From an uncultured Verrucomicrobiota bacterium (GTDB lineage: Bacteria; Verrucomicrobiota; Kiritimatiellia; CAIKKV01; CAITUY01), in assembly GCA_964568965.1 (NCBI GenBank), contig CAZMSS010000001.1, positions 1 through 56,420 on the forward strand: a DNA stretch of 56,420 nt. Direction: 5' to 3'. A model generated the notes under the pieces. It searched no databases. It had not been told where the DNA came from and saw only the letters and a program-made list of their open reading frames with translations. The position numbers and the translations under genes were made by a program. Shown one piece after another: positions 13,698 to 56,017 of the stretch. Position 1 is the first letter of the stretch, and each line of letters begins with the position of its first letter.

Positions 13698-13822
13698 GGT
13701 AAAGTCCCTTTCGTGACCTAAAATGGCCTTGCATCCGATGTCTGGTGCAACATATTCTAACTGCTCGAGAAATTCAAACAGGGAAGTCGTGCGGATATGA
13801 GCCGCAGAAGAGGTATAAAGAC

Positions 13823-22945: not shown

Positions 22946-23317
22946 TTACCTTGCCGACGGTGAGGCGGCGATGACGACGAGGCCGCGTTGCATGAGATCC
23001 TTCAGGTATTGCACAAGAAGGGCGCGGGCCTCGAGGAAGGTAAGCTTCTCCGCGGATGCCAGTTCCATGACGAGCTGCTCCAGCGTCCGCTTGCCATCCA
23101 GCTTCGCGTAAAGCTCCCGGGAGAGCCCCGCCAGCTCATAGCGGCGTACACGCTTGGTTTTAAGGATCTTGGCGGCCAGATTCAACAGGCCGCTATACCG
23201 GAGGCGAACCTCCACGATCAAGGCTCCGGGATTGTGGTCCGGGGTGTAGGCCTTGACCCCCTCGTTCCGCACCGGCACGCAGTGCAGCTGCGTTTCGAAA
23301 TCCAGGTGTTTTTTCAT
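22946..23317 (-). CDS. PqqD-like small protein (RRE / peptide-chaperone fold candidate)
   Basis: The protein is 123 aa. The C-terminal half LYAKLDGKRTLEQLVMELASAEKLTFLEARALLVQYLKDLMQRGLV fits the PqqD winged-helix pattern. The ATGA overlap with the upstream gene is at 23314-23317. Confidence 0.55.
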   Translation of the reverse strand: MKKHLDFETQLHCVPVRNEGVKAYTPDHNPGALIVEVRLRYSGLLNLAAKILKTKRVRRYELAGLSRELYAKLDGKRTLEQLVMELASAEKLTFLEARALLVQYLKDLMQRGLVVIAASPSAR

Positions 23318-24168
23318 GGGGCGAGCAACTCCTTCTCATCCAGAAGTTCCACCTTGCGGGGAGCCGACTGCACCCAGGCGTAAATTCGTTTCTCCGTCGT
23401 GTCGTGCCAGATCCGGCCAACGCCCGGCCAGCGTGCGGCATACAGCTTGTCCATGCCGTGGGTGCCGCGGATTTCGGCCGTGATCTTCACGGATTCCATG
23501 CCGTGAAACGTGTCCCTGCTGCTGGTCAGGATACGCCCCTCATGCCCGCGCAACACATCGCCGAAAAATGATTCCAGGTTGCGAGTCCTCAGCAACTCGC
23601 GCGGTACACCCCAGCGGTGCAGGTCGACCTTGTGCATGTTCTTCCGTTCAAAAGCCAGCCATACGTCGGCCGGTTTGCAGGAGGCCTCCTCCAGCTCGAA
23701 ATCGCGAGGGAGGCGGCACCGGATGCCGAACAGGGACCATTCGCGCCAAACCCCGTCATTCGGCTTGCACGATTCCAGGATCGGGCGCCAAATCCGCTCG
23801 AACTTTTCCGGAGAAAATTCCGGGAAACTCCACAGGAGAACCTTGGACTCGCGCGCGAGGTGGGTCACCGCCGAGCAGGGGGCGCCGGCGGCGGGGTGCC
23901 CGACGAGAAACGCGCCAACCCGCCGGGTCTCGAATTCAGAGAAGCGTTGAAATGCCTCCTTGTCGAATTGTTTCAGGTAACGGCGGTGATATTCCGTCAG
24001 GATGCGCTTTTCATCCGGCAGGCGTTTGCAGGTTTCCCAGGAAAGAACGCCGAGCGGCCCGTGCCGGTCGGCAAATTCCAGTCGCCCGACCTGTGCGGCG
24101 ACGGAGTAACGCGACACTTCCCACTGGTCCGGGACCTCCGCGGTGAAGTCATGCCACGCAATGCGCAC
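23314..24168 (-). CDS. Hypothetical cytoplasmic protein (284 aa), no recognisable domain
   Basis: The ORF has a GTG start overlapping the TAG of the upstream ATPase by 1 nt. There are no TM segments. It is W/R/E-rich with no motif I can assign. Confidence 0.55.
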   Translation of the reverse strand: MRIAWHDFTAEVPDQWEVSRYSVAAQVGRLEFADRHGPLGVLSWETCKRLPDEKRILTEYHRRYLKQFDKEAFQRFSEFETRRVGAFLVGHPAAGAPCSAVTHLARESKVLLWSFPEFSPEKFERIWRPILESCKPNDGVWREWSLFGIRCRLPRDFELEEASCKPADVWLAFERKNMHKVDLHRWGVPRELLRTRNLESFFGDVLRGHEGRILTSSRDTFHGMESVKITAEIRGTHGMDKLYAARWPGVGRIWHDTTEKRIYAWVQSAPRKVELLDEKELLAP

Positions 24169-24914
24169 TAGGCGTCACCCCGCCCCCTGATGGAGCCGAC
24201 CGAGATGTTCATGGAGGCGGTGTCCTGGATCTTCTCGATGGCGCCATCCTTGATCCAGACAATACGGTCGGAGGCCGCCAGCATCTTATGGTCGTGGGTG
24301 GCGCTGATGACCGTGACGCCCTTCTCGACGGAGAGCTGCTTGAAGAGCGTAATAATCTCCTTGCCGGTGTTCAGGTCGAGGTTGCCGGTCGGCTCATCGG
24401 CGAGCAGGATGGTGGGTTCATTCACGAGGGCGCGGGCGATGGCCACACGCTGTTGCTGGCCCCCGGAGAGTTCGTCGGGCCGGTGCGTAAGGCGTTCGCC
24501 CAGCCCGACGTAGGTCAACACCTCGGTGGCGCGGCGGTGGGCTTCCTTCTCGTCAATCCCCAGGAAGATCTGGGGCAGGGCGGTGTTTTCCAGGGCGGTG
24601 AGGAACGGGATGAGATTGTAGGTCTGGAAGACATAGCCGATGTGGCGGCAGCGGAAGTAGGAGCGCTCGAGGGAGGTCAGCGAGGAGATCCGGACGGACT
24701 TCACGCGCACTTCGCCGCTGGTCGGCGTGTCGAGGGCGCCGATCATGTTGAACAGTGTGGATTTTCCGGAGCCGGAGGGCCCCATGATCGAGAGGTATTC
24801 CCCCCGGTAGATGTCCAGGTCCACGCCGCGCAGGGCATAGACTGTCTCCCCCTTGCTCTTGTAAACCCGGTCGATGCCCCTGACCGACAGCAGTATTTCA
24901 TCCGATTTCATCAT
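24168..24914 (-). CDS. ABC transporter ATP-binding protein, MacB/LolD/FtsE type (copy 2)
   Basis: Motifs are Walker A GPSGSGKST, the signature LSGGQQQRVAIARAL, Walker B ILLADEPT and the H-loop ATHD. The start is trimmed to the ATG at 24914 (MMKSDEILLSVRG) with GGAGAG upstream. The track N-terminal extension to 25037 overlaps the upstream gene. Confidence 0.9.
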   Translation of the reverse strand: MMKSDEILLSVRGIDRVYKSKGETVYALRGVDLDIYRGEYLSIMGPSGSGKSTLFNMIGALDTPTSGEVRVKSVRISSLTSLERSYFRCRHIGYVFQTYNLIPFLTALENTALPQIFLGIDEKEAHRRATEVLTYVGLGERLTHRPDELSGGQQQRVAIARALVNEPTILLADEPTGNLDLNTGKEIITLFKQLSVEKGVTVISATHDHKMLAASDRIVWIKDGAIEKIQDTASMNISVGSIRGRGDA

Positions 24915-24919
24915 CTCTC

Positions 24920-26890
24920 CTAGTACGGCAATGTGGTGGCGGCCTTGGCGAGGAACACGAGCCCGACCGTCACCATCGAAACGAGCCCTGCACCCACCAT
25001 GTAGCCGGCGCTCAGGATCGGAACGATCTTCCGCCAATCACTCCCGAATCGTTTCTGGAAATAGAACCGTCCGATACAGGCCCCCAGGAACTGCACGAGG
25101 ATCACATGGGGCAGGGATTGTCCCAGCCCTCGGATCAGCCCGTAGAACAGCATGAGCGGAACATTGAGGGCCGACATTGCCCACGCCACGCCCATCGCGA
25201 TGCTGAAGCCGGCGCCAATCTTGGCGACGCTGAACGCCTTCTCGAACGGCGAAAATTCCCCCATGGTGGAGGAATAGAGCAGGCAGGCATTCTTGGCCTC
25301 CAGCTCCCAGATCATCTCCGTGTACGGATATTGGGAGCTTGGGATGGGAGCCAGGCTCCAGATGAAACTCGAGAAGCAGATCATCGAGATGAGAATGATC
25401 GGGACGAGGATCAGGGCCGCCTTCCAGATCGAGGTGAACTTCGTTCCCAGCAGTTCCGCCTGCCGGTAGAAGACCACCATGCCGCTGAAGTTGGCCTTGG
25501 GCACGGGGATGAACCAGATGGCCACCCCCTTGTAGCCGGAGAGAATGAAGGAGAGTTCCCGGATGAAGGGGATTTCCACCACCTGGCCCGCCAGTCCCTC
25601 GAGCTTGGCCGACACATAGGAAATCAGCGGTGTATAGACAAACCCGAAGAACACCAGCAGGATCATCACGCCCCGGTGCCAGTCGACCAGCCAGCCGCTG
25701 AGCAGGATGTAGGACAGCACGCACAGGATGTAGGCGAGCACGGCGTAGCGGCCGGGAATATCACCGCGCCCCTCGGGCACGGTCGATCCCTTGCGCTTGC
25801 TCTTGTCGGCGGTCCGGACACTCCGGACCACGCCCCAGATGCCGATCACGGCAATCGCCAGGGAGATGCCGATTCCGAGGCTGAAGTACAGGTCGATGTT
25901 GTTCTTGAACAGGATCTGAACCGTGGAGTCACCCTTCTCGTAGGTGCTGAGCACGCCGAGGTGGTAAAGGATGGGATTGGCCGCCATGGTGATCATCAGT
26001 CCGATAAAGCTGCCGAGCATGGCGAAGAACGGCATGACCATGCCGACGATCACCTGGCCCAGGTCCATGGAGAGTCCCGTGGCCGTGGCGGGGAGGATAT
26101 CCTTCGTGAAGGTGGAGAAATCCGCGAACGGGATGGGCAGGACCTGCACGGCACTACCGAAGATCGCGCCTGTGATGGTGGGAATTCCGATGTAGATGGC
26201 GCCGAACCCCATGCCGATGGCTCCCCCAATGCAGAAGACGCGCCAGCGCCGCACGGACTGGGTGTCGCTGCCATCGTTGCCCTCGACCTGCTCGGCCAGC
26301 GCCGTGATTCCCTGCGCGCCGACCGGCGCCATGGGGAAGGGCAGCTTTTCAATATCGCTGGTCTGGTGGAAGAGCCCGTATCCCATGATGGCCGAATTCA
26401 AGTTGCCGATGAACATCTGGAACATGATCATCCCCATCACGGGGAGCCATTCCCACTGGAAGAACGTGCGGTTCTTGAGGGCCGCCTCGGAGGCGGGCGC
26501 CACCCAGACAGGCAAGGCCGTGTTGATGCCGAACGAGGTGGCCGCGTCGCTTTGCACCAGGAACTGCGTGAACAGCGGGGTGCCCTGCACTGTCTGCCCC
26601 ACAATGATGCCCGCCATATAGAACAGCACGAACAGGCTGGCGCGACTGAGCGAGGCGTTGGCCCGCTTGGCGATTTCAACGAACAGGATGACGGTTACCC
26701 ACTGGGCGGCGGGACCGATACCCGTGCCTGCCACCAGTTCCATGTACAGGCAGCCCGGGATCATGACCATGGCAAGGAACAGTGCCCCCAGCAGGGAGGA
26801 AAGCGAGAATCCCTCCTGGAACTGGGACGGCACTTCCATGACCGCCCGGAATTCCTCCATCTCCTTGTCTCGTTTGTTCAGATCAATCAT
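24920..26890 (-). CDS. Polytopic membrane protein A (~656 aa, at least 12 predicted TM helices), family unassigned
   Basis: The start is trimmed to MIDLNKRDKEMEEF. Many hydrophobic helices are present, including LLGALFLAMVMIPGCLY, WVTVILFVEIA, VFCIGGAIGMGFGAIYIGI and VMPFFAMLGSFIGLMITMAA. The conserved-looking loop HQTSDIEKLPFPMA is paralleled by YHEQLRYPLAS in protein B. Confidence 0.8.
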   Translation of the reverse strand: MIDLNKRDKEMEEFRAVMEVPSQFQEGFSLSSLLGALFLAMVMIPGCLYMELVAGTGIGPAAQWVTVILFVEIAKRANASLSRASLFVLFYMAGIIVGQTVQGTPLFTQFLVQSDAATSFGINTALPVWVAPASEAALKNRTFFQWEWLPVMGMIMFQMFIGNLNSAIMGYGLFHQTSDIEKLPFPMAPVGAQGITALAEQVEGNDGSDTQSVRRWRVFCIGGAIGMGFGAIYIGIPTITGAIFGSAVQVLPIPFADFSTFTKDILPATATGLSMDLGQVIVGMVMPFFAMLGSFIGLMITMAANPILYHLGVLSTYEKGDSTVQILFKNNIDLYFSLGIGISLAIAVIGIWGVVRSVRTADKSKRKGSTVPEGRGDIPGRYAVLAYILCVLSYILLSGWLVDWHRGVMILLVFFGFVYTPLISYVSAKLEGLAGQVVEIPFIRELSFILSGYKGVAIWFIPVPKANFSGMVVFYRQAELLGTKFTSIWKAALILVPIILISMICFSSFIWSLAPIPSSQYPYTEMIWELEAKNACLLYSSTMGEFSPFEKAFSVAKIGAGFSIAMGVAWAMSALNVPLMLFYGLIRGLGQSLPHVILVQFLGACIGRFYFQKRFGSDWRKIVPILSAGYMVGAGLVSMVTVGLVFLAKAATTLPY

Positions 26891-26897
26891 GGTCTTG

Positions 26898-29800
26898 TCA
26901 TTCCTGGGTGCTTGCGAAAACGTCGCTCGTTGTCCGGTAATGTTCGACCGTGGCGACGGGGAGTGACCGCCAGAGCAGGAACTGCTGGCGCAGTTCATCC
27001 ACAAAGATGCGGTTCCCCCTCAGCCAGGCCCCCTCCGTGCCGCTGACCTTCTTCAGCTCCACGACCACTTCGTCAATGCCCTCAATCTCGGACGGCCGCG
27101 AGAACATGGTGAACGCCTGCATGACGCCCAGATCGAAAGGAGCCAGCGAGACTCTGGCGCGGATGCCGCGGGATCCCCGCTTGTCCAGGTTGAAGAGCTC
27201 GACCTCGGACGCTGCGAAGTTGCCGAGCGAGGAGTCGCCATGATTCCCGAAATGTTCGGCAATGAAGGCCAGGATGCCGCCCATGTCATTGGCCGAGACC
27301 GTGAAGGGGAAAACAAACTCGATCCGGTCGTCGGATGGCTTGGGCATCTTCCACCGGCGGGCGACGCCGGGGTTGGCGGAACGCCCCGCCTTGATGGCCG
27401 GATAGATGGTGGAGATCATCACCATGACCATGACGATGAGGATCGTCAGCACCGAGGCGAGGGATGAGAAATTCATTTCTGGCGGAACGAACCAGCCGAG
27501 ATCCCCGCAGAGGCCGACGACCTTGGCCGCCACCTGGCTGACCAGATAGCCGCCCATGCCGCCGAGGATGGCATAGACTCCCGATTCCGCGAAGAAGAGC
27601 GCGCCCACGTCCGGCGGGGCCAGGCCCAGTGCGCTGTAGGTGAAGATCTCCTTCTGCCGGTCCACGATGGATCCGAGCAGCGAGTTGAAGATGATCAGCC
27701 CGCCCAGCAACAGCGGCACGATCAGCATGACAAAGCCCGAGGCCTGCATGGACTTCGAGAAGAAGAACTGGTTGGTGCCCTTGGAGCCCTTGGCGTTGAC
27801 CGGTCCCACGAAGACCTTGGCCACATCGCGGGCGGTTGCCTCGACATCCGACTCGGCCCCGGCGTACATCACGATCGCATTGACAAGCGGGGTAAGCCGG
27901 TCCGATGCGAGCCGGCCCAGGCTGCCCCGGGTGGTGATGCCGATCGTACGCGACGGGAAATAGGTGAAACGGGTGGCGTCCACGGATATTTCCTGCGAGC
28001 TGTCCGTTCCGCCCTTGGCCATCCCCTCGATTCCGACTTCACGGGACGAGGCTTCAAAGTCGGGGGGGGCAAACCGGGCCTTGTCCAGAAAGGTCAACTG
28101 ATCCACCGCGGCCGCGTCAAAGGTTCCGCCGAAGGTGAACGTCTCGCCCCCGATGGAAAGGATCGCGCCGGGGGTCACGCCCAGGGATTCGGCCACCCGC
28201 TGATGAAGAAACAGGGGAGGGGGCTGGTTTGCCTGGTTGGTCGAGGCTGCCCAGGCGGCCAATCCCGGAATCGCCTGTGACAGGACCGGGTTCGATGCCA
28301 GTTCTTCCGGCTCGAGGGACACCATGGCTTTCAGCGTCTCCCACTTGCGCGTCTCCTTCTGGAAGACCACCAGCTCGCCATCGATATCGCTGGCCGGTGC
28401 CCGGAAGAGGCATTCCCGCGCATGGATTTTCCACTCTCCGCCGTATAATGCCTTAAGCGACTCCAGGAGGGTCTGGGGGATGGCGAGGCTGGAGAAGCGG
28501 CGCAGTTCAATCCGGTTCGGGCCTGAACCCTTGCCGAGGTAACTCTCCTTGACCCCGATCATGGAGGTGAACGAGGCGAACACCACGATCGTGAAGGTCA
28601 GCATGATGATCGTCAGTGCCGTCAGGAATGTTTTCAGGGGCCGGTTCCGCATCCCGGATATACCGATCAATACCGCGGCCATGGCGGTGCTGCTATCGGC
28701 CGCCACGCCGTGGGCGCTGGTGCTCAGGCCCTGGATCTCGCGCAGCTCGCGCTTGAACTTGGACATGACGATGGACATCACCACCACGCTGAGCAGAATG
28801 ATGACAAAGGCCAGGAAGATGATCATGGGCGATGCGGCCAGGGCAAACGCCGGATGGGCCATGTACAGGAGGAAGAACGTCGCCAGGAAGAGGCCGGCAA
28901 AGCCGAGCACCTGCCGGTAGATCGTGAGGCTGTTCAGGAGCAGGCGTTCGAGCACAAAGGCGAAGGGGATGGTCAGTAACAGCAGCAGCACGACGGCGCG
29001 GATCATGTCGTTGGTGACTTCCCGAAGGGGTTCCGCGACCCGAGCCCCCATGGTGGCGGCGAAGGCCTCATGGGCGACGGCTCGGGGAATGTCCTGGGTT
29101 TTGCGCGCCTCCACGGCGGCGTCCCAATGACCGACCGCGTCCGCATGCAGGGTTTCAAGGGACTCGTTGATGATCGCCTTTTCCCGCAGGATACGGAGAC
29201 GCGACTCGTTGAGCAGGGTGTAGTCGTGGGCCGACTGGCGCAGGGCATTCTTGGCATACATGGGCGGCTCATCGATCGGGAGGCCGGTTCCCTGGGGATT
29301 ATTGGTTGTAGACCCCAGCAACAGCAGTCCGCCGTTGGCATAAACCTTGAACGCCCCGTGCTCGTCGGCGAAGAACTGCAGGACTTCCTCGATCGTGGCG
29401 ATCATGTAGCTGTTCCGGAAGAGGGAATCGGAACGGCCTTCGGCCACGGTGCAGACCGGCTGGCCGTACTTGCCCGGCAGCAGGGGAAGGAACATCACCC
29501 CGCCATAGCCGTAGAAGAGCCGCCGCGTGCCCCAGCTTCCCGAGGGGAAGAGGTTCAGCTCCCCGTTGGCGTCAAAGCCGAGCGGCCGGTACGGCACATT
29601 ATTGAACATCATCGGCATGAAAATATGCCCCGAGGCCAGGATGCGCGATGCGGAGGAATAGGAATTTCCCGCGATGCAGGGCATTCCCTGGACCTTCATC
29701 GGCGCACAGAACGCCACGCCATCCCGGGGTACACCCTCGACGTCGGTGGAGCCGCGCACGTAATTCAGATAACGAATCCCGCCCTCTCCGCGAAAATGCA

Positions 29801-31688: not shown

Positions 31689-32445
31689 CGTGTTCACCCA
31701 GGCTCGCCTTTTCAATCAGGAGGTCGGAACTCAACTCGATCCGGTTCACGCTGCCGTCCACGATCCACACAATCCGGTCGCAGACCTTGAGCATGTTGTA
31801 GTCATGGGTCGCGCAGATGATGGTGACCCCTTCCTGCCGGTTCAACTCGTACAGAAGCTGGTGGATCTCCCGGCCGGTTTTGATGTCCAGGTTGGCCGTG
31901 GGTTCGTCACAGAGCAGAAGGGAGGGGTTGTTGGCCAGGGCGCGCGCGATCGCCACGCGCTGCTGCTGGCCGCCGGACATCTCCTTGGGGCGGTGGTTCC
32001 AGCGGTCCTTGAGCCCGACCCGGTCCAGCAGCGCCATGCCGCGCGCGCGCGCATCGTCGGCGTGCATCCCGCTGAACACCATGGGCAGGGTGACATTGTC
32101 CAGGGCCGTCATGACGCTGTTAAGGTTGTAGGACTGGAAGACATACCCGATTTTGCGGCAGCGCAGGAACGCGAGTTCCTTGGCGTTGAGCTGGGCCATG
32201 TCCACGGCGTCCATGAAGACGCGCCCCTTCGAGGGGGAATCCAGCCCGCCGACCATGTTGAAGAACGTGCTCTTGCCCGAGCCCGAGGGGCCCATGACGC
32301 ACATGTATTCGCCCCGGTACACGCACAGGTTGATATCCCTCAGGGCGTGAACCGTCTCGGTGCCGCGCTGGTAGAGCTTGCGCACGCCCACCGCCCGCAG
32401 GACGAATTCCCGGCCCTTCGCATATTCTTTTTCGTCGTATGGCAT
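31681..32445 (-). CDS. ABC transporter ATP-binding protein, MacB/LolD/FtsE type (copy 1)
   Basis: Motifs are Walker A GPSGSGKST, the signature MSGGQQQRVAIARAL, Walker B LLLCDEPT and the H-loop ATHD. By eye it is about half identical to copy 2. Confidence 0.9.
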   Translation of the reverse strand: MPYDEKEYAKGREFVLRAVGVRKLYQRGTETVHALRDINLCVYRGEYMCVMGPSGSGKSTFFNMVGGLDSPSKGRVFMDAVDMAQLNAKELAFLRCRKIGYVFQSYNLNSVMTALDNVTLPMVFSGMHADDARARGMALLDRVGLKDRWNHRPKEMSGGQQQRVAIARALANNPSLLLCDEPTANLDIKTGREIHQLLYELNRQEGVTIICATHDYNMLKVCDRIVWIVDGSVNRIELSSDLLIEKASLGEHDE

Positions 32446-32451
32446 AGATAT

Positions 32452-33930
32452 CTATTCCACCCTCATGGCATCCATCGGGGCCATGGCCGCCGCCGCCCGT
32501 GACGGGTAGATGGAAGCCAGCATTGACAGCAACACACCCAGAACAACCGTAAAGACCGCGCACAACAGCAGGGGCAGGGCGGGGAAATACACAAAGACGC
32601 TGACGCCGAAGATCGCCGAGCTCTTGATCAGGGCGACCAGCAGGCCAATGGCCATGCCGAGGGTTCCGCCGATCATGCCCTGGATGGCCGCCTCGATCAG
32701 GAACTGGTTCAGGATGAAGCCGTCCGTCGCCCCCAGGCATTTCATGGTGGCGATTTCCCGGAAACGCTCGGTAATGGACATGAGCATCGCATTGGTGATG
32801 CCCACCATGCACACGATGAAGGAGATGACCGCCAGGAACAGCTGGCTGCCGTCAAGAAATCCCGCCGGCTCACCGCCGGACGTGCGCCGGACGGGAAGCT
32901 TATCCTCCAGGTTCCGCAGCTGCTGTGCCCGCGTGAAGTTGGCCGCCACCGCAACCCGCTGTTGGGGGGTGAATGATCCACCCAGGAGCGAGTCCGCCCG
33001 CGGGTCGTTTACTTGAGCGAACTGCTCCTCCAGGGAGGGCAGGGACCCGAACGACTCTTTCCAGGCCTTGCGGCTTTCATCCGACTGCAGCAGGCGGGCG
33101 ATGCGGGTCTCGTGCGAGGCCAGGGTCAGCAGATGCCGGAGCCGGAGCATCACCACGGGCTCCAGGCGGAATCCGGCGGCCACGACGGCCTGACGCCACT
33201 GTTCAACCTCGGCGTCCCGGGCGCCGGCAATCCAGTCGGCGACATCCCCGCCGCCGGTGAGTGCCTGGAGACGGGTCTGCAGGCCGGTCACGGTGGCTGC
33301 CCAGCCGGCGCGCGCCGCTTCAAGGCTCTTCAGGTGATTTGACCAGTTGTCGACAAACGCCCGCATGGTTGTGATATCCGTAGGAAGGCGCAGGGAGCGC
33401 ATGTTGGCGAGATTACGGGTGAATTCATCCCAGCGGGCCGGGTCGGCGAGTATGGTGAAGACCTCGCGGCCCCGGGCTTTTTTCACGAGCACCATGCGCT
33501 TGCCGATGTTCATGTCCTCAAAGAACGACAAGTACTTGTTTTCCAGCCGGCACTGGCCGGCCAGCCGTGCGGCGGCCTCGGGCGTGATCCCGGCGACCTG
33601 CGCAAACTCCGCGAGGGTCTCCGGCTGCCCATGCGCGGCGGCCAGCTTGCGCGACAGCCCGAGGGTGGAATGGGGGTAGAAGATGTGGGTGAGCAGGAGG
33701 TCGCCCTCGCGCAGGTCGAGCACCGCCGCGGCCACCCCCTTGCCGATGGATCGCGTCATGGTGCCCTCGCTGAGAAGGGCCATGAAGAACGCCACCGCCA
33801 CGACAACGACCGCCAGCGTCAGCGAGGAACGGAACAGCCGGTACGAGATGCCCTTGAGGCAGAACCCCAGGGACTTCCGGAACGAAAGCTGCACCTGCTT
33901 GCGCACATCCATATGTTCTGATGACGTCAT
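32452..33930 (-). CDS. FtsX-family ABC permease with a ~330-aa helical-looking extracytoplasmic domain
   Basis: The N-terminal TM is LTLAVVVVAVAFFMALL. The C-terminal FtsX domain reads ERFREIATMKCLGATDGFILNQFLIEAAIQGMIGGTLGMAIG plus two further TMs. The loop between them is A/L/R/E-rich. Confidence 0.85.
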   Translation of the reverse strand: MTSSEHMDVRKQVQLSFRKSLGFCLKGISYRLFRSSLTLAVVVVAVAFFMALLSEGTMTRSIGKGVAAAVLDLREGDLLLTHIFYPHSTLGLSRKLAAAHGQPETLAEFAQVAGITPEAAARLAGQCRLENKYLSFFEDMNIGKRMVLVKKARGREVFTILADPARWDEFTRNLANMRSLRLPTDITTMRAFVDNWSNHLKSLEAARAGWAATVTGLQTRLQALTGGGDVADWIAGARDAEVEQWRQAVVAAGFRLEPVVMLRLRHLLTLASHETRIARLLQSDESRKAWKESFGSLPSLEEQFAQVNDPRADSLLGGSFTPQQRVAVAANFTRAQQLRNLEDKLPVRRTSGGEPAGFLDGSQLFLAVISFIVCMVGITNAMLMSITERFREIATMKCLGATDGFILNQFLIEAAIQGMIGGTLGMAIGLLVALIKSSAIFGVSVFVYFPALPLLLCAVFTVVLGVLLSMLASIYPSRAAAAMAPMDAMRVE

Positions 33931-33949
33931 GGTTTATCCCGAAAAAACC

Positions 33950-35959
33950 CTAGGGCGCGACCGGGGGAGTGGCCCCCGTGATCTGGTAATAGATAAAGCC
34001 CACCACGAAACCCATGGCCACGGCCATGAATTCCCCGACAATGAACCCGATAAAAAGAGGCTTCATGGAGTTGTACATGCCCCCGCCGCCGAACTTGACC
34101 ACCAGGTTCTTGATTCCCCAGCCCAGCAGGAACCCGAACCAGGAGTACATGCCCACCGTGGTTCCCAACAGGATCAGGAAGAGTGGATGGAGCGGCCATT
34201 TGGCAAAACGGAAACGCAGACCATAGGTGACCAGCACCGAAGCCAGGCCGACCAGGACCCACCCGACGGTACGGCCATCGGCGCGCATGAGCGGGAGCCG
34301 GTCGAAACCGCGCGCGGCTTCGGAGACCTCCATCTTGCCAAGGTCCTTGAGGTTGAGGACCTCGGAGGCGCCCTTCTGCAGAACTCCCCGCTCCTCATTG
34401 CTCAGGTTGCCCTGCCCGTTGGTGTACGAGATGGTGAGGGTGGCAATAAAACCGGCGATGAGCATGATGGCAATGACCCCGATCGAGGCGTACGCGAAGC
34501 GGCGGAGCTTGATCTTGTTGTCGTCAAGGATCTTCAGGCTCGTGGCCATGTAGGGCATGATCAGCTGGGTGGAATCGGCCATGGTCCGGCTCAGCAGGCT
34601 CATGAAGACCAGCGGCACGGCGCCGATCGCCGCCGGACCGAACAGCCCCGTCATCAGCCCGGGCAGCGACCATGAGGGGGCGATTGTGGGCACGCCGGTC
34701 TCGCACACCAGGCGCGTCACGACGAGGAAGACCAGCAGCAGGAAGGTCACATAGATCCAGGCAACCAGGAAGGCAAAGCCGATGACCTTGAATATGATGA
34801 TCAGGCAGATATAACCCGCCAGGAAGACGCGGGCCGCCCATACCTCGCCGGGATCAATCAGCACCTTGCGCGACACGGGCACAATCGCCCTCCACAGCAC
34901 CGGGAAATAGTAGGTCCGCCCCGTATACATGAGGATCAGGCCAAAGGCGATGAACCCCCCGGACCGGAAAACATCGAGGTCCGATGACGCCAGGGGAGCG
35001 CCGGTGGCCAGATAGTACTGGATTCCGACCAGGGTCCCCAGCGGGGCCGTGAGGCCCACGGCAAGGCTCACGTCGGAGGGCACAAAATAGGCGATGCCGA
35101 TGATCGCAAAACTGATGGACATCCAGTGGAGGCAGAACATGGAGGCGTTCGACTGGTCGGGGCCGATGATCGGGAGCACGTTCCACCAATATAAGCTATA
35201 ACCTAGGGCCGGCTGGGGCAACTTCCCGGGAAACCACATGTTGAGGTACCCCAGCAGGTTGAGGAAAAAGACAAGGAGGAAGCCCCACCAGAAGAGCTTG
35301 TTGTGGTAGATCCGGCCGCCGGGCCGCGTGTCATCCTGCCGGAGCAGGGCATCGGCCACCGAGGCCAGCGGGTAGCGCAACTGTTCATGGTAGGCCCACT
35401 GGCGATGCACCAGGAAGCTCAGCGCCAGCAGGCACAGGCACAGGACAATCAACAGGGGTATCCAGTGCAACAGGGGGGTAACCCACTCGGCAAACGGGAT
35501 CTTCCCCAAGGTCAGGCCTCCCTGGATGAACCCGAAATGCACCTTCTCGCCGATGACGCTGCCGGTCTCGCCGGCCGGGAACAACCCCGCCGGCAGGCGC
35601 GCAGTCAACCCCGCCTCCTTCCAGGGAACATTGGAGGTCATCTCCTCGTAGCGCGGCAGGATCAGATGGCGGACCAGGCTGCCCTGCAGGCCGGGAATCC
35701 AGGAGACCATCAGCATAAAGCAGAAGATGACGGCCAGTTCCCTCCCGCTGAGCGCGAGACTCCGGTTGACTCGCCCCGCGATCATGTTCCAGGCGCAGGA
35801 CATCATGACCATCAGGAACAGCGGCACCACCGGCAGATACCCCTCGATGGCATTGGGGATTTTCAAAACCAGGTCGCTGTAGGTCGGAAAGGCACAGACG
35901 ATCAGCAGGCTGATCAGCCCCGTCACTGCCGTCTTAATTGTGAATTCCCTTGTGGCCAT
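33950..35959 (-). CDS. Polytopic membrane protein B (~669 aa), a distant paralog of protein A
   Basis: The start is trimmed to the ATG at 35959 (MATREFTIKTAVTGLISLLIV) with GAGGGG upstream. There are at least 12 hydrophobic helices. The loop WAYHEQLRYPLASVAD matches the EKLPFPMA loop of protein A. Confidence 0.8.
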   Translation of the reverse strand: MATREFTIKTAVTGLISLLIVCAFPTYSDLVLKIPNAIEGYLPVVPLFLMVMMSCAWNMIAGRVNRSLALSGRELAVIFCFMLMVSWIPGLQGSLVRHLILPRYEEMTSNVPWKEAGLTARLPAGLFPAGETGSVIGEKVHFGFIQGGLTLGKIPFAEWVTPLLHWIPLLIVLCLCLLALSFLVHRQWAYHEQLRYPLASVADALLRQDDTRPGGRIYHNKLFWWGFLLVFFLNLLGYLNMWFPGKLPQPALGYSLYWWNVLPIIGPDQSNASMFCLHWMSISFAIIGIAYFVPSDVSLAVGLTAPLGTLVGIQYYLATGAPLASSDLDVFRSGGFIAFGLILMYTGRTYYFPVLWRAIVPVSRKVLIDPGEVWAARVFLAGYICLIIIFKVIGFAFLVAWIYVTFLLLVFLVVTRLVCETGVPTIAPSWSLPGLMTGLFGPAAIGAVPLVFMSLLSRTMADSTQLIMPYMATSLKILDDNKIKLRRFAYASIGVIAIMLIAGFIATLTISYTNGQGNLSNEERGVLQKGASEVLNLKDLGKMEVSEAARGFDRLPLMRADGRTVGWVLVGLASVLVTYGLRFRFAKWPLHPLFLILLGTTVGMYSWFGFLLGWGIKNLVVKFGGGGMYNSMKPLFIGFIVGEFMAVAMGFVVGFIYYQITGATPPVAP

Positions 35960-35997
35960 TGGTTTCCACCCCTCACCGTTCCTGGTTTCCCGCCACC

Positions 35998-37359
35998 TCA
36001 TCCTTTTTTGGCAACCGGCCGGCCGGCCATGAAGGCCTCCACGTCGTCCATTTCAAGCAGGGCGCCGGCGGTGAAGTTCTCGATGCCGTTTTTGGTGATC
36101 ACCACCGTGTCCTCGCACCGGATGTAAAGCTCCTCCTCCGGAATCCAGGTCATGGGATCCACGGACAACACCACGCCGGGCTCCAGGGGCTTGTCGCGGT
36201 AGGAGCAGGCGTCGTGCACCGCCAGCCCGACCGGATGGGAGAGGTGCGGCTTGAACACGAGCATGCGCCGGGCGGCCTGCTCGTAGATTTTCTTGGACCA
36301 CTTGGTCTTCCTGATGACCCGCTCCATCTTGTTGGCGGCCGCCTTGAGGACATCATCGGCCATGACGCCGGGGCGCAGGAGGGACAGCAGGGTTTTGTGA
36401 TACTGGATGATGAACCCGTAAAGCTCGCGTTGCCAGGGGGTGTACTTGCCGTTCACCGGCCAGATGCGGCCGATGTCGCTCGCGTAGTTGTTGTAGTCGG
36501 GGGCGCCGTCCATCAGGACGATATCGCCATCCTTCATGACGGCATTGTTGCGGCTGTAGTGTCCGAACTGCATGTTGCGCCCCGAGGCGACGATCGTGCT
36601 GTAGGCCTCGCCGGTCGCGCCGGCCGCGAGGAAGATGTGGCTGGCCTGGGCGGCGAGTTCGCGCTCGACCATGCCGGGCCGGGTGATGCGCATGGCTTCC
36701 ATGACGCCGAGCGCGGTCAGGCGGCCGGCTTCGCGCATGACGGCGATTTCACAGGGGCTCTTGACCCGGCGCATCCGCTCGATGATGGAGTCGATCTCCC
36801 TGATTTCAACGTTCGGCAAGCGTGTTTTCAGCAGGGCAATGAAATGCTGGCGGGGGGAAGGCCGTCCATCCCAGGGGTCTTCAGAACGCATTTTATCCAT
36901 GCGGATAGCCGTCCAGCGCGTCACAAAGGGCAGTTCGGCCGGCTTCTGGAAAACATGCAGGGTCTTGACGTCCTTGAGGAATCCGGAGAGTGCCTCGGGG
37001 CCGTAAACCTCGTCGACGCCGGTGAAGCGGCGGATCATGGCGTCATCTTCAGCGCCCAGTCCCACCTCATCCGGATGCTTGTCCGCCGGCCGGTGGGGAA
37101 TGAAGAGCCGGGTCTTGCGGTCGGTTCCCGACATCAGCAACAAGGCGTTGGGGATCTCCACGCCGCAGCAGTAGTAGAAATCGCTGGCCTGGCGGAAGCG
37201 GCCGCCGGCCTCCCCGGGCTCGCCGCGCAACAGCACATGGGCCCCGGCCCCGATCTCCTTGAAGATTGTCTTGCGGCGGGCTGTGAATTCCGCCGGCGGA
37301 AAGGCCTCGTTGAAGTAATACCGCGCCTGGGTCAGTGTAAGCGTCTTGGTCTTTGTCAT
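35998..37359 (-). CDS. M24B-family Xaa-Pro aminopeptidase/prolidase-like metallopeptidase
   Basis: The pita-bread ligand motifs are VLMDGAPDYNNYASDIGR (D, D), HLSHPVGLAVHD (H) and IRCEDTVVIT (E). The usual xEPG Glu position reads VLSVDPM, an Asp in my by-eye alignment. There is no signal peptide. Confidence 0.85.
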   Translation of the reverse strand: MTKTKTLTLTQARYYFNEAFPPAEFTARRKTIFKEIGAGAHVLLRGEPGEAGGRFRQASDFYYCCGVEIPNALLLMSGTDRKTRLFIPHRPADKHPDEVGLGAEDDAMIRRFTGVDEVYGPEALSGFLKDVKTLHVFQKPAELPFVTRWTAIRMDKMRSEDPWDGRPSPRQHFIALLKTRLPNVEIREIDSIIERMRRVKSPCEIAVMREAGRLTALGVMEAMRITRPGMVERELAAQASHIFLAAGATGEAYSTIVASGRNMQFGHYSRNNAVMKDGDIVLMDGAPDYNNYASDIGRIWPVNGKYTPWQRELYGFIIQYHKTLLSLLRPGVMADDVLKAAANKMERVIRKTKWSKKIYEQAARRMLVFKPHLSHPVGLAVHDACSYRDKPLEPGVVLSVDPMTWIPEEELYIRCEDTVVITKNGIENFTAGALLEMDDVEAFMAGRPVAKKG

Positions 37360-37405
37360 GCCCTTCTCCCTTTCATGATCGATTGCGTTGTGTTGTAGGT
37401 GAAAA

Positions 37406-38578
37406 CTATTTTCCGAAACGATGCTTCTTGACGGCGCCCTCGTCGAGCTGGACGCCGAGCCCGGGGCCTTCCGGGACGGGTATGCAGCCGTCCTCGAGGG
37501 GCAGGGACATCAGCCGGTCGTGGGGTGGAGCCAGCAGGCCGGTGTGGATGCCGATCTCGGTGAACTCGACGGCGTCGACCATCTTCACGGTGGATGCGGC
37601 GAGATGCAGTTTCGCCGCCCGCTCGATGCCGGTGCCGAACGCCGTGCCCAGGACGCACTGCAGGCCGGCCGCCTCGGCCAGGGCTGCGATCTTCTTGGCA
37701 TTGTAGAGGCCGCCCGCCTTGCCGATCTTGATGTTCAGCACGTCGGCCGCCTCGTGGCGGATGATCTGCATGGCGTCGTGAATCGTGTAGCAGCTTTCGT
37801 CGGCCTCGATCAGCGTGTCCACGGAACGCCGTACGCCGGCCATGCCCTGCAGGTCCCACGCCTGTACGGGCTGTTCGAGGAGGTCCAGGCCCACATCGTG
37901 CTTTTCGGCCAGCCGGCAGAGACGGATCGCCTCCTTGGGGGTATAGCCCTGGTTGGCGTCGGCACGCAAGGAGACGCCCTTGCCCACCGCTTCGCGGATG
38001 GCGCGCAGTCGGTCGGCATCCTTGTCCGGGTCGCCGCCGATTTTCGGCTTGAACGCGCGAACGCCCTGTTTCATGTATTTGACGCACTCGTTTGCCATGT
38101 CGTCGGGCGAACCGCCCGCGATTTCAATGGCCACGGGGATGCGCTTCTTGTGGGAGCCGCCGATGAGGGCGCTGACAGGGACGCCGAGGGCCTTGCCCAT
38201 CAGGTCGTGGAGCGCGAGGTCGAGACCGGCCTTGGCGCAGGAGTTTCCCCGGTAGTCGATATGGTGGATCAGGTATTCGCGGTCGAAGGGGTCCTTGCCG
38301 ACGAGTTGCGGCCCCAGGTAATCCTCCACGGCGGACTGGATCTCCTCGATTGTCTCGCCGAAGAACCCGATGTCGGCCGGCGCTTCCCCGATCCCGGTTG
38401 TGCCCGCGTCGGTCGCGATGTGGACCAGCAGGTATTCGAGGATCGGGGATGGGCGTTTAGGCGAGACACGGCTCAGGCGTCCACCCCACTCCCGCTTCGT
38501 CCCCGCGTTCTCCGAGTTGTAGAAGAACTGGGTGAGCGGGATGCGGACTGCGGTTGTGGTGACGGCGGTGATCTTCAT
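37406..38578 (-). CDS. Enolase-superfamily enzyme, MLE subgroup (dipeptide epimerase-like, e.g. L-Ala-D/L-Glu epimerase family)
   Basis: The KxK motif is FKPKIG. The metal ligands are in LRADANQGY, LLEQPV and IEADES. The second catalytic Lys is in NIKIGKAGG. Confidence 0.85.
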   Translation of the reverse strand: MKITAVTTTAVRIPLTQFFYNSENAGTKREWGGRLSRVSPKRPSPILEYLLVHIATDAGTTGIGEAPADIGFFGETIEEIQSAVEDYLGPQLVGKDPFDREYLIHHIDYRGNSCAKAGLDLALHDLMGKALGVPVSALIGGSHKKRIPVAIEIAGGSPDDMANECVKYMKQGVRAFKPKIGGDPDKDADRLRAIREAVGKGVSLRADANQGYTPKEAIRLCRLAEKHDVGLDLLEQPVQAWDLQGMAGVRRSVDTLIEADESCYTIHDAMQIIRHEAADVLNIKIGKAGGLYNAKKIAALAEAAGLQCVLGTAFGTGIERAAKLHLAASTVKMVDAVEFTEIGIHTGLLAPPHDRLMSLPLEDGCIPVPEGPGLGVQLDEGAVKKHRFGK

Positions 38579-38591
38579 GGCGTTCCTTTTT

Positions 38592-39626
38592 TCAGCTCTC
38601 CGTTGGCAACTCGTGGGCGTGCTCCATGAGCGTGGTCAGCAACTTGACCGTGGCATCCATGTCATCGGCGTGACACAGCTGCACCGTCGAATGCATATAG
38701 CGGACGGGTGCGCCGATGGTGGTGGCGATGACGCCCGCCCGGGACTGCTGGATGGCGCGGGCATCGGTTCCCCCGCCAATGTTCTTCTGGAAGGGAATCC
38801 GGTTCTTCTTGCACAGGTCGTACAGGAAACTCAACAGGCCGCGGTGGCCGATCGTCAGGTTGTCCACCAGGTAGATGCCCGTGCCCTTGCCCGGTTCGCA
38901 GAGGTTCTGGTGATTCTTGACGTAGGCGCCACGGGTCATGCTGCCGTCCAGGGCGATGCCGATGTCGGGATCGATGCCGAAGGCGGCGGGGGTCATGCCG
39001 CGCAGGCCGACTTCCTCCTGTACGGAGCTCACGGCGTAGACATCCACATGGGTTTCCTTCACCTGGCGCATGGCTTCGAGCAGGCAGTAGGTGCCGATGC
39101 GGTCGTCGAAGTTACGCCCCACCCACATCTTGCCGTTCAACAGCGAAACATCCTCGTCGAACGTGACGATGTCGCCCACATCGATGAGCTTGAGGAGATC
39201 CCGCTTGGACAACCCGGTGTCAATCAGCAGGTCATCGAGAACGGCGGCCTTTCCGTCGGGGCCGGCCGGCTTGGGGACCACGACCCCGCGCACGGGTTTC
39301 CGGCCGTGGATGATGACGCGCTGGGACTCGACAACCTGCGGGTTGAGGCCGCCCATCTGGATGAAGTGGATGAATCCCTCGTCGTTGATATGCTTGACCA
39401 TCATGCCGATTTCGTCGGCATGCGCGGCGAGCAGTAAACGGAGGGGGTGTTTCCCCTTGGCGGGCGGGCGGGTGGCCTTGCGGAGTCCGATGACGTTCCC
39501 CATCCGGTCTCGGCGCACCTCGTCGCAGCAGCCTCGCAGAACATCCATGGCTACCGCCTGCACCCCGTCCTCGAATCCGGACACTCCGGGGGCATTTCCC
39601 ACACTCTTGAGTAATTCGTGGTTCAT
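38592..39626 (-). CDS. M42-family metalloaminopeptidase (FrvX/glutamyl aminopeptidase-like)
   Basis: The N-terminus is APGVSGFEDGV and the motif LLAAHADEIGMMV is present. Length is about 344 aa. The sequence GGAG lies 9 nt upstream of the ATG. Confidence 0.88.
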   Translation of the reverse strand: MNHELLKSVGNAPGVSGFEDGVQAVAMDVLRGCCDEVRRDRMGNVIGLRKATRPPAKGKHPLRLLLAAHADEIGMMVKHINDEGFIHFIQMGGLNPQVVESQRVIIHGRKPVRGVVVPKPAGPDGKAAVLDDLLIDTGLSKRDLLKLIDVGDIVTFDEDVSLLNGKMWVGRNFDDRIGTYCLLEAMRQVKETHVDVYAVSSVQEEVGLRGMTPAAFGIDPDIGIALDGSMTRGAYVKNHQNLCEPGKGTGIYLVDNLTIGHRGLLSFLYDLCKKNRIPFQKNIGGGTDARAIQQSRAGVIATTIGAPVRYMHSTVQLCHADDMDATVKLLTTLMEHAHELPTES

Positions 39627-39667: not shown

Positions 39668-39696
39668 ACAATAGCCGCTTATCATGCTGTTGTAAA
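39668..39696 (-). promoter_or_regulatory. Candidate sigma70-like promoter for the 11-gene minus-strand cluster
   Basis: On the minus strand: TTTACA (plus 39691-39696), a 17-nt spacer, then TATTGT (plus 39668-39673). It lies about 40 nt upstream of the M42 ATG. The promoter consensus for this lineage is unknown. Confidence 0.25.
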
Positions 39697-39846: not shown

Positions 39847-40905
39847 ATGTATCGCCAGTATTTCATTGATTTGACTCGCAAGGACGTCCGTGTACCCATT
39901 GGTGTTGACATGATTCTTCACAAGTACCCGGATGTGGATGCCATTCTCGACGATGGGGAGCGGATGGGTCAGGTTCTTCTGGAGGCGGCGGGGTTCTATA
40001 ACAGTCCGATTGTGATGCCCCACATGGACCTAATGCTCGAGAAGGATCATCTGCTTGCCCTGATGGGCGTTCCGGAAGCGGATCGCCCGGCCTATCATTT
40101 TCATGGTTGCCCCCCGGAAGCGATGGTCGCTGCATTCAAGTCCGGGATCAAAGGGCCACTGGGGCGCAGGATGGAAGCCCGGAACGAGGCCATCCGGTAT
40201 GTCGCAACCCATTCCACGCTCCTGCCCATGGGTATTTCGATCGGCCCCTTCTCCCTGATGACCAAGCTGCTGGCTGATCCTATTACCCCCATTTTCCTGC
40301 ATGGAGCGGGGGTTTCCGGTGATGACGATCCGGAGGTCAAGGCCGTGGAGGTCTGTCTGGAGCTTGCGCTGGCCGTGGTCTTGCGCGCCATTGAGGCTCA
40401 ACTGGATGCCGGGGCCAAGACGATTATCGTGGCCGAGCCGGCTGCCAATACCGTCTATCTCTCGCCCAAACAGATGGAGGAGGGGGCTGATATCTATGAC
40501 CGGTTTGTACTGGCCCCAAATAGGGTCATGCGCGAATTAGTGGCAGAACGTGGTGCTGCATTGATATTTCATGACTGTGGGGCGCTTACCCCGGAGATGA
40601 TCCGCAAGCTCGACACGTTGCGGCCCGAGGTATTCAGCTTCGGCAGTCCCGTGAACTTGTGGGAGGCGGCGGATCTGGTGTCGAAGGACACGGTTCTCTA
40701 CGGGAATCTCCCCTCCAAGCGGTTCATGTCGGACTCCCTGATCACGGTTGAGCAGGTGAAGGCCGCCTCCCGTGACCTGGTGGCGAGGATGCGGGACAAA
40801 CAGCATCCTTTCATGCTGGGCACGGAATGCGATGTTCTTTGCGTTCATGAACACAAGGAGACGATTGCCCGCAAGGTGGAAGCCTTCATGACCTGCGAGG
40901 TCTAG
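39847..40905 (+). CDS. Uroporphyrinogen-decarboxylase (URO-D/MtaA)-like family protein, second copy
   Basis: Length is 352 aa. It shows URO-D-fold-like landmarks: GISIGPFSLMTKLL (GPFT/SL motif), AGAKTIIVAEPAAN..LSP, IFHDCGA and LYGNLPS. Confidence 0.65.
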   Translation: MYRQYFIDLTRKDVRVPIGVDMILHKYPDVDAILDDGERMGQVLLEAAGFYNSPIVMPHMDLMLEKDHLLALMGVPEADRPAYHFHGCPPEAMVAAFKSGIKGPLGRRMEARNEAIRYVATHSTLLPMGISIGPFSLMTKLLADPITPIFLHGAGVSGDDDPEVKAVEVCLELALAVVLRAIEAQLDAGAKTIIVAEPAANTVYLSPKQMEEGADIYDRFVLAPNRVMRELVAERGAALIFHDCGALTPEMIRKLDTLRPEVFSFGSPVNLWEAADLVSKDTVLYGNLPSKRFMSDSLITVEQVKAASRDLVARMRDKQHPFMLGTECDVLCVHEHKETIARKVEAFMTCEV

Positions 40906-55441: not shown

Positions 55442-55483
55442 TGACAAACACGATGCTATGCTTGCACTTTATATAACAGGTTT

Positions 55484-55987: not shown

Positions 55988-56017
55988 AAATCCGTAGATG
56001 AGGAATGAGGTAATGAG

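Follow-up and report, generated by a model that had tools for sequence, protein, structure and literature searches.

Introduction

Type VII ATP-binding cassette (ABC) systems spend ATP on mechanical work in the cell envelope, and new members of the class have brought new partners and new tasks, such as lipoprotein extraction, hydrolase activation and lipid hydrolysis. To our knowledge, no type VII ABC system with partners of the oligopeptide transporter (OPT)/YSL fold is known. Here, we describe this combination in an uncultured Verrucomicrobiota bacterium (assembly GCA_964568965.1, contig CAZMSS010000001.1), from which a window of 56,420 nt was analyzed. The genes in question lie in a minus-strand cluster at positions 22946-39626 and are numbered g11 to g1 in the direction of transcription: three peptide-processing enzymes (g11, g10 and g9) are followed by a polytopic protein (g8), an FtsX-type permease (g7), an ABC ATPase (g6), a giant FtsX fusion protein (g5), a second polytopic protein (g4), a second ATPase (g3) and two small proteins (g2 and g1). 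Our results showed that the conserved unit consists of eight genes (g8 to g1, 22946-35959), not eleven, and that both of its polytopic proteins have an OPT/YSL fold.

MacB-type permeases are described as mechanotransmission devices (PMC5985334, PMC12646458), and barley YS1, of the OPT family, is a proton-coupled importer of the elevator type (PMC9691689). An earlier interpretation of the window, made from its letters alone (the sequence-only reading), had proposed that all eleven genes form one envelope system, through which peptides enter and are degraded by the three enzymes. We favor, tentatively and with somewhat less than even confidence, a reading in which the module acts as a type VII ABC machine and cooperates with OPT-fold transporters in the ATP-assisted capture and uptake of a peptide-like ligand.

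An eight-gene module is conserved across phyla

Relatives of g5 were found in 189 species genomes of GTDB. The loci of the best 80 of these 189 were read, and the eleven proteins of the window were mapped onto the six-frame open reading frames (ORFs) of related loci; the counts below refer to loci with enough flanking sequence. All of the best 80 carriers were metagenome-assembled genomes (MAGs) or uncultured bacteria, mostly Lentisphaerota/Victivallales, Kiritimatiellia, Verrucomicrobiota and Planctomycetota, with single MAGs from Polyangiales, Spirochaetes, Chitinivibrionales and Omnitrophota. The module was also present in Sumerlaeia, and 56 full-length relatives of g5 (38-73% identical) were found in metagenomes. 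Its prevalence was ~0.1% of the species genomes scanned.

The order g8-g7-g6-g5-g4-g3 recurred across the loci read and across phyla. In 62 of 64 loci the giant gene had g4 downstream of it, and in 44 of 49 it had g7 upstream; g6 was present in 49/55 and g3 in 49/57 loci. Of 45 loci, 38 contained g8 and 33 had it directly upstream of g7. The g2 and g1 pair was detected with family hidden Markov models (HMMs) in 16 of 27 full-flank loci (17-18 when loci that carry a single member of the pair are included). It follows g3 or, in a clade that is more distant, precedes g7. When a recurrent partner family was sought in the 94 nearest flanking ORFs, no Pfam family occurred in more than two of them, which indicates that the module is a self-contained unit in variable contexts. 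The explanation that two unrelated ABC systems became adjacent by chance was rejected, because order and content are kept across phyla. Altogether, g8 to g1 very probably constitute one conserved functional module. The proposal that all eleven genes form one system was not borne out, since g9, g10 and g11 each had a homologue in just 1 of the 30 related full-flank loci.

The Planctomycetota MAG PL25a_bin.47 carried three giant-gene paralogues in one genome (L037, L046 and L049), one of which belongs to a complete module that has two DUF6785 genes in tandem. In some relatives, small genes of PF05635 ('23S rRNA intervening sequence protein') were inserted beside or inside the module (L007, 1865-2347; L091, 13495-13884 and 21586-21942), and one of those in L091 lay between the FtsX and ATPase genes.

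Both polytopic proteins have an OPT/YSL fold

The g8 protein matched DUF6785 (E 6e-63) and DUF6784 (E 1e-15) of Pfam. The window copy of g4 had no Pfam match, and 11 of 27 members of its family matched Pfam OPT (PF03169; best E 3e-11), while names assigned by NCBI within this family include 'peptide transporter' and 'OPT/YSL family transporter'. With at least 54% identity across phyla, g4 was the most conserved component. Fold searches of the PDB with the AlphaFold models of g8 (pLDDT 88, pTM 0.88) and g4 (pLDDT 71, pTM 0.71) returned the barley YS1 structures 7wst/7wsr as the sole matches at E<=0.001 for both proteins, with E 3e-9 and a TM-score of 0.58-0.64 for g8, and E 2e-7, probability 1.0 and TM-scores of 0.62/0.67 for g4. 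Because both models match YS1 alone, we consider g4 and g8 to be divergent OPT-superfamily folds. Their sequence identity to YS1 is 13-14%, and PDB sequence-profile searches with the two families found nothing. BLASTP detected no pairwise similarity between g4 and g8, and a comparison of their family profiles gave a weak match (probability 5.5%, E 0.007) that was limited to the region of a shared E-x-L-x-[FY]-P-[ML]-A motif.

The sequence-only reading had called both polytopic proteins novel, a view that has to be given up, as g8 is already covered by DUF6785 and DUF6784 and both proteins show the OPT/YSL fold. It had also routed peptides through these proteins, and for this the shared OPT/YSL fold provides indirect support; the direction of passage and the type of ligand are what we infer.

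The sole solved structure that resembles either polytopic model is an iron-phytosiderophore transporter, and in one locus (L005) a gene for a TonB-dependent-receptor-like protein (Plug domain) lies directly upstream of the module. Both observations would fit uptake of a metal chelate (metallophore) as in plant YSL proteins, with the periplasmic domains binding a nicotianamine-like complex and the OPT/YSL-fold proteins importing it. However, YS1 was the sole significant match, with no other OPT entry among the matches listed, so that the comparison identifies the fold and not the substrate. Furthermore, no metallophore-synthesis or metal-regulator gene was recurrent in the flanks, and the PqqD-like and M28-like parts would be left without a role. 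We consider metallophore uptake very unlikely.

A distant DUF6785/6784 protein (25% identical) is encoded in an Armatimonadetes MAG (L087/L088, 8001-9923) by a solitary gene without ABC or FtsX genes, which adjoins genes for a Laminin_G_3/GHL10 protein and a GH2 enzyme, among glycoside hydrolase genes. The DUF6785/6784 fold may also act independently, in a glycan context.

Two dedicated ATPases and a giant permease resemble a type VII engine

Hydropathy analysis of g7 predicted four transmembrane (TM) segments and an extracytoplasmic domain of ~310 aa (residues 54-363). Both ATPases carry canonical Walker A, signature and Walker B motifs, and they are 51% identical to each other. An ATPase directly upstream of the giant gene was of the g6 type in 53 of 53 cases, and one downstream of g4 was of the g3 type in 46 of 46. 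This fixed position by type shows that the ATPase duplication is old and that both copies were retained; g6 and g3 are an ancient paralogous pair, and each belongs to a position-specific orthologous group. The membrane genes had been described as two divergent copies of a three-part module (polytopic protein, permease and ATPase). This description holds for the ATPases as ancient paralogues, but for g4 and g8 at the level of fold only. The gene order also differs; the first set runs polytopic-FtsX-ATPase and the second FtsX-polytopic-ATPase, so that no single order is simply repeated in tandem.

According to hydropathy and the family alignment, g5 consists of a signal peptide, a periplasmic region of ~865 aa, three TM helices, an FtsX module of four TM helices and a cytoplasmic tail of ~160 aa. 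Residues 22-291 gave profile matches in the PDB to the aminopeptidases 2ek8 (E 8e-10) and YwaD (6hc6), and the window protein had no match to Pfam M28. In the profile alignment, the g5 family has residues other than His/Asp at the positions of the HHD and NDD motifs of 2ek8, and its M28-like domain carries an almost invariant SHY, which we take to stand where M28 sequences have GAEE. Because the metal-ligand motifs are not kept and SHY replaces GAEE, we read this PA/M28-like domain as probably non-catalytic, i.e., as a binding domain. A helix-rich segment at residues ~310-470 had weak PDB matches of the coiled-coil type, and the extra TM helices (895-975) contain the invariant residues E914, R915 and H945. 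The FtsX module (1020-1436) includes a 277-aa periplasmic domain, matched MacB_PCD in 2 of 11 family members, and gave PDB profile matches to MacB, YtrF, LolF and LolC. No match was found for the tail (1440-1596) among Pfam and PDB sequences. A phmmer search of 1.84 billion representatives (one per 50%-identity cluster) yielded 1308 matches to it, 757 of them at E<=1e-10, and in the best 150 of the 1308 it was located at the C-terminal end, mostly in proteins of ~1450-2100 aa. The cytoplasmic tail is a signature of the family.

FtsX works with EnvC, which has a degenerate LytM domain, and this arrangement is mirrored by g5, in which a degenerate peptidase-like domain is followed by the helix-rich segment. 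The module might be an envelope-remodeling regulator with recycling, similar to FtsEX-EnvC, in which ATP-driven movement switches a periplasmic hydrolase and the OPT-fold proteins take up the freed envelope peptides. Single loci beside the dcw cluster (L004) or alanine racemase, as well as the dipeptide-epimerase-like gene upstream in this contig, agree with such a role. However, each cell-wall neighbor was seen once, no hydrolase gene was recurrent beside the module, and the scores against the curated FtsE and FtsX models were far below the cut-offs. The low prevalence of the module also argues against a housekeeping function in division. Thus, we judge envelope remodeling to be unlikely.

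A PADLOC scan matched only the FtsX regions of g5 and g7, to generic 'CARF_LolE_TM' models, and gave no match for g1, g2, g4 and g8. The g5 match (residues 1272-1485, 'CARF_m8--CARF_LolE_TM', 129 bits, E 3e-38; Pfam FtsX only 40 bits) ran ~50 residues beyond the last TM helix of g5, and no CRISPR or defence genes were nearby. A more distant giant-like protein with a real Pfam M28 match (P0053) was solitary, without ATPase or OPT genes, and was treated as a different family.

A PqqD-family protein is paired with a soluble protein of no assigned family

The window copy of g1 scored 17.7 bits (E 0.005) against Pfam PqqD (PF05402), under the cut-off of 23.4. In its family, 20 of 21 members matched this model (best E 5.5e-11), which bears out the earlier description of the tail gene as PqqD-like. 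The Sumerlaeia orthologue had an unmarked precomputed PqqD match, and the g1 profile matched the lasso-peptide PqqD chaperone 9x90 in the PDB (E 0.0016). The g2 protein was always paired with g1, and its family HMM found 33 ORFs in related loci. Searches of Pfam, NCBIfam and the PDB with g2, as a single sequence and as a profile, gave no match, and a Pfam scan of all 19 members of the g2 family gave nothing credible. TM segments and invariant Cys or His residues are both lacking in g2, which therefore looks more like an adaptor than an enzyme.

The PqqD family comprises leader-peptide chaperones of peptides that the ribosome makes and that are modified after translation (RiPPs), and the best PDB match of g1 is a lasso-peptide chaperone. 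These observations would fit an exporter or resistance machine like MacAB, Bce or DevCBA, which expels or detoxifies a peptide, antimicrobial or self-made, with the PqqD-like protein as precursor chaperone and the OPT-fold proteins as exit path. The best model scores of the ATPases, though below cut-off, were those of LolD, MacB, the darobactin-export protein DarD and DevA, and one homologue bears the JGI name 'ABC-type antimicrobial peptide transport system permease'. However, a search within 1.5 kb of the module for conserved small ORFs (25-120 aa) that could encode a RiPP precursor found no cluster that spanned more than 3 loci. Neither radical-SAM, YcaO, cyclase or protease genes (94 flanking ORFs) nor membrane-fusion or outer-membrane-factor genes were recurrent in the flanks, and no two-component system was adjacent. 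In addition, the characterised OPT/YSL members are, as far as we know, all importers. An export function is, in our view, rather doubtful.

A candidate route for capture and uptake of a peptide-like ligand

In the uptake reading, the module would encode an inner-membrane machine made up of the permeases g7 and g5, their dedicated and non-interchangeable ATPases g6 and g3, the OPT-fold proteins g8 and g4 and, usually, the cytoplasmic proteins g2 and g1. The ~865-aa periplasmic region of g5, headed by the apparently dead PA/M28-like domain, would capture the ligand. Binding and hydrolysis of ATP by g6 and g3 would cause an FtsX-driven movement in the periplasm (mechanotransmission), by which the ligand would be released or passed to the OPT-fold proteins, and these would provide the membrane path that MacB-type permeases lack. 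In the cytoplasm, the PqqD-like g1 with g2 would receive it. Four independent but indirect hints suggest that the ligand is peptide-like: the OPT/YSL fold of g4 and g8, the PqqD family of g1, the M28-like domain of g5 and the local peptide-processing genes. It is conceivable, although fairly unlikely, that the module represents a new class of primary-active transporter, found mainly in the Planctomycetes-Verrucomicrobia-Chlamydiae (PVC) group, in which a type VII engine with two ATPases mechanically drives or gates elevator-type OPT-fold carriers. In such an ATP-powered OPT importer, the pseudo-peptidase ectodomain of g5 would replace a soluble binding protein.

Several points weigh against the uptake reading. 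Gene content and order, conservation, folds and family assignments are shown, whereas it is inferred that the parts assemble and are physically coupled, that transport runs inward and that the ligand is a peptide. Characterised MacB-family systems export, extract or regulate, and we know of none that imports; RiPP biosynthesis, not uptake, is the setting in which the PqqD family is best known. The stand-alone DUF6785 gene among glycoside hydrolases implies that the ligand need not be a peptide, and the association with peptidase genes is confined to this contig and, loosely, its nearest clade. OPT/YSL transporters work by proton coupling and do not require an ATPase (PMC9691689). Furthermore, PL25a_bin.47 has two reduced 'DUF6785-giant' pairs without FtsX or ATPase genes between them, which hint at a possible direct pairing of DUF6785 proteins with the giant protein, and in some loci g8 is duplicated, displaced or absent.

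Gene models and upstream peptide-processing genes

All eleven minus-strand ORFs of the sequence-only reading were recovered at 22946-39626. Re-reading them upheld their common direction, the gaps of at most 46 nt and the overlaps it had named, and its family assignments agreed with Pfam and NCBIfam (Table 1). From g11 to g1, the spacings are 13, 46, 38 (-4 with the upstream g8 start), 19, 6, -8, 7, 5, -1 and -4 nt, with an 8-nt overlap at 31681-31688 (g6/g5), TAG/GTG at 24168 and ATGA at 23314-23317. Public gene calls with identical product lengths exist for g5, g4, g2 and g1 (1596, 656, 284 and 123 aa, respectively). The tight packing and partial overlaps of the module genes fit translational coupling. 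Sigma-70-like sites occurred across the region at chance level, and a scan of the cluster for intergenic terminators found no convincing one.

Table 1. Coordinates of the genes of the cluster and of the domains of g5.
Feature	Position	Strand	Support
g11, M42 aminopeptidase, local neighbor	38592-39626	-	Pfam Peptidase_M42, E 4e-74
g10, enolase superfamily (MLE subgroup), dipeptide-epimerase-like, local neighbor	37406-38578	-	Pfam MR_MLE_N + MR_MLE_C
g9, M24 Xaa-Pro aminopeptidase, local neighbor outside the conserved module	35998-37359	-	Pfam M24 + AMP_N
g8, polytopic protein, DUF6785 + DUF6784, OPT/YSL fold	33950-35959 (alternative start 36001, giving 683 aa)	-	
g7, FtsX-type permease, 4 TM	32452-33930	-	Pfam FtsX, E 1e-16
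g6, ABC ATPase 1, MacB/LolD-like	31681-32445	-	Pfam ABC_tran, E 5e-33
g5, giant membrane protein of 1596 aa with a C-terminal FtsX region	26898-31688	-	
g5 residues 22-291, PA/M28 aminopeptidase-like domain, probably non-catalytic	30816-31625	-	Profile matches 2ek8, 6hc6
g5 residues ~895-975, three extra TM helices	28764-29006	-	Hydropathy, alignment columns
g5 residues 1020-1436, FtsX/MacB-type 4-TM module	27381-28631	-	Pfam FtsX, E 4e-10
g5 residues 1440-1596, family-specific cytoplasmic C-terminal domain	26901-27371	-	phmmer
g4, 656-aa polytopic protein, divergent OPT/YSL-family transporter	24920-26890	-	Pfam OPT matches in family, fold
g3, ABC ATPase 2, canonical motifs	24168-24914	-	Pfam/NCBIfam, 51% identity to g6
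g2, 284-aa soluble protein, no assigned family	23314-24168	-	
g1, 123-aa PqqD-family (peptide-chaperone-like) protein	22946-23317	-	
Weak sigma-70-like promoter match 5' of g11	39668-39696	-	9/12 consensus positions

The nearest solved relative of g9 in the PDB is aminopeptidase P (E 1e-50), and that of g10 is the L-Ala-D/L-Glu epimerase YkfB (E 1e-58). All NCBIfam equivalogs were under cut-off for g10: epimerase models scored 150 and 80 bits, against cut-offs of 500 and 343, respectively, and a higher score, 205 bits, was obtained with the model of the muconate cycloisomerase subfamily.

In its full form, the sequence-only reading made all eleven genes one system, in which the M42, epimerase-like and M24 enzymes break down imported peptides, possibly ones with D-amino acids. 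In this contig, g9-g11 are co-directional with the module and separated by gaps of no more than 46 nt, and their co-transcription with it is plausible because the packing is tight and no convincing intergenic terminator was found. Relatives from the Victivallales clade also keep M42 and enolase genes, or an M24 gene, ~3-5 kb from the module. However, co-occurrence of the peptidase and transporter genes in relatives came out against the proposal, with the single locus in 30 for each gene given above. In the Victivallales relatives, M42 and enolase form a divergent pair 3.5-5 kb upstream of the module, and sugar-metabolism genes (ADH, PfkB and aldo-keto-reductase) intervene. Homologues of g9-g11 are absent from the closest relative with context, whose g8 is 74% identical, and a divergent alanine racemase gene takes their place. 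As a conserved system, the eleven-gene arrangement is largely refuted, and we consider the full model highly improbable. In the uptake reading, the three upstream enzymes of this contig would fit a local use of the system for peptide nutrition.

In several Victivallales loci (L091-L093, L011 and P0017), the M42/enolase pair is separated from the module by an ADH_zinc-PfkB-aldo/keto-reductase block. A similar ADH_zinc-PfkB-Fe-ADH block is found in the window at 13745-16933; its location, ~6 kb past the opposite end of the cluster, points to local rearrangement.

Context of the cluster and significance

A secreted zinc protease of the Peptidase_M66 family (StcE-like), which has a signal peptide and in which the motif HELGHALGRPH is intact, is encoded at 21265-22941 (+); its gene is convergent with the cluster and ends 4 nt from the g1 stop. 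Together with sulfatase, GH31, GH78, GH106-like and GH127 genes, it suggests that the contig targets glycoproteins, not glycans alone, and this would fit a local recruitment of peptide-processing genes. Genes of the URO-D family (uroporphyrinogen-decarboxylase-like) flank the cluster at 20099-21235 (+) and 39847-40905 (+), and their products have no similarity detectable by BLASTP, which argues against a recent duplication. A DHDPS-family gene at 44481-45518 (-) and an aldehyde dehydrogenase gene at 45386-46903 (-) adjoin those for GH31 and the GH78 rhamnosidase. These two ORFs overlap by ~130 nt, so that the DHDPS start is probably further downstream, and the pair may be part of a catabolic branch of the deoxy-sugar or hydroxyproline type. 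A gene for an RHS-repeat protein is located at 54014-55441 (+), within the last 2.4 kb of the contig, where the GC content is 0.50 (54001-56000) compared with ~0.63 elsewhere; this drop suggests that the DNA may be foreign or mobile.

PVC-group bacteria are important degraders of glycans and glycoproteins in guts, sediments and the ocean. The module defines a large uncharacterised type VII branch tied to two OPT-fold proteins, with relatives in 189 species genomes and a tail domain in more than 750 representatives at E<=1e-10. If its parts work together, this would be the first case of a MacB-type engine linked to the fold of a secondary transporter. Functions could then be assigned to DUF6785, DUF6784 and two unannotated families, and the module would point to a nutrient-capture or envelope route specific to PVC-group bacteria.

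Comparison with known systems

Energy-coupling factor (ECF) importers combine two different ABC ATPases with a coupling protein in the membrane, whose target is a separate integral membrane protein that binds the substrate, and they use no soluble binding protein. The module resembles them by analogy only, in having two ATPases, a putative coupling protein and a separate candidate membrane carrier. There is no homology: the couplers of the module are of the FtsX type and not EcfT, and its candidate carriers are 650-aa OPT-fold proteins and not small S-components. To the PqqD and RiPP recognition element (RRE) chaperones of RiPP pathways, the likeness is that the g1 family matches Pfam PqqD and PqqD-type chaperones of the PDB. 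The module differs from these pathways in that no gene for a precursor peptide or a modifying enzyme was found near it, and the constant partner of g1 is the 284-aa g2.

With the OPT/YSL family (TC 2.A.67; PF03169; barley YS1, 7wst), g4 and g8 share the fold (probability 1.0, TM-score 0.58-0.67), the polytopic architecture and a similar size of ~650-680 aa. They differ from it in their low identity (13-14%), in the missing Pfam match of the window g4 and in the filing of g8 under DUF6785/DUF6784. Moreover, known OPT/YSL members act alone as proton-coupled carriers (PMC9691689), whereas g4 and g8 are fixed partners of ABC ATPase and FtsX genes.

The closest likeness is to the type VII ABC systems (MacAB-TolC, LolCDE, FtsEX-EnvC, YbbAP-TesA, BceAB and YtrBCDEF). 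The module shares with them FtsX-type 4-TM permeases in which TM1 and TM2 enclose a large extracytoplasmic domain, MacB/LolD-like ATPases as separate proteins and PDB profile matches to MacB, LolC, LolF and YtrF, as well as a dedicated accessory partner, which is typical of the class (PMC12646458). Scores against the curated models were far below cut-off, and the membrane genes are a conserved unit apart from Lol, MacAB, FtsEX, Bce and Gld, in line with the earlier view that no described system combines these parts. For LolCDE, the LolD model gave 230 and, with g6, 223 bits against a cut-off of 308, lolCE 50 against 362 and LolC 17-33 against 473; for FtsEX, FtsE gave 203 and 194 bits against 265 and FtsX 35 against 255. 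The ATPases are separate genes, without the fusion of nucleotide-binding domain and FtsX seen in MacB, the MacB model gave 227, 201 and 63 bits against 966, and a MacA (HlyD-type) adaptor was absent among the 25 most frequent Pfam families of the 94 flanking ORFs. The BceAB layout of 10 TM helices with a domain between TM7 and TM8 differs from the 4 TM of g7 and the 3+4 TM of g5, which has its large domains N-terminally and between helices 1 and 2 of the FtsX module. Response_reg and HATPase_c were each found in 2 of the 94 flanking ORFs, so that no BceRS-type two-component system was recurrent. The permeases are FtsX-type (PF02687), with no Gld/ABC-2 model in the Pfam or NCBIfam output that would indicate GldFG, and the ADOP model (TIGR03434) gave 21 and 38 bits against 622.

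In contrast to the described systems, no gene for a MacA-type adaptor, outer-membrane factor, EnvC, TesA or BceRS was recurrent nearby, and the module always has two different permeases and two different ATPases. One of the permeases, g5, is a 1596-aa fusion with a pseudo-M28 domain, three extra TM helices and a unique C-terminal domain, and the constant partners are OPT-fold polytopic proteins. We found no paper on DUF6785/DUF6784, and literature searches that combined FtsX with oligopeptide transporter and PqqD, OPT with MacB and PVC phyla, or type VII ABC with secondary transporter retrieved no description of the module. Judged by its component families, the module is likely to work as a type VII ABC mechanotransmission machine that stands outside any characterised subfamily. 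OPT-fold proteins as fixed partners of a type VII engine appear to be undescribed so far, and the membrane proteins are known folds in a new combination.

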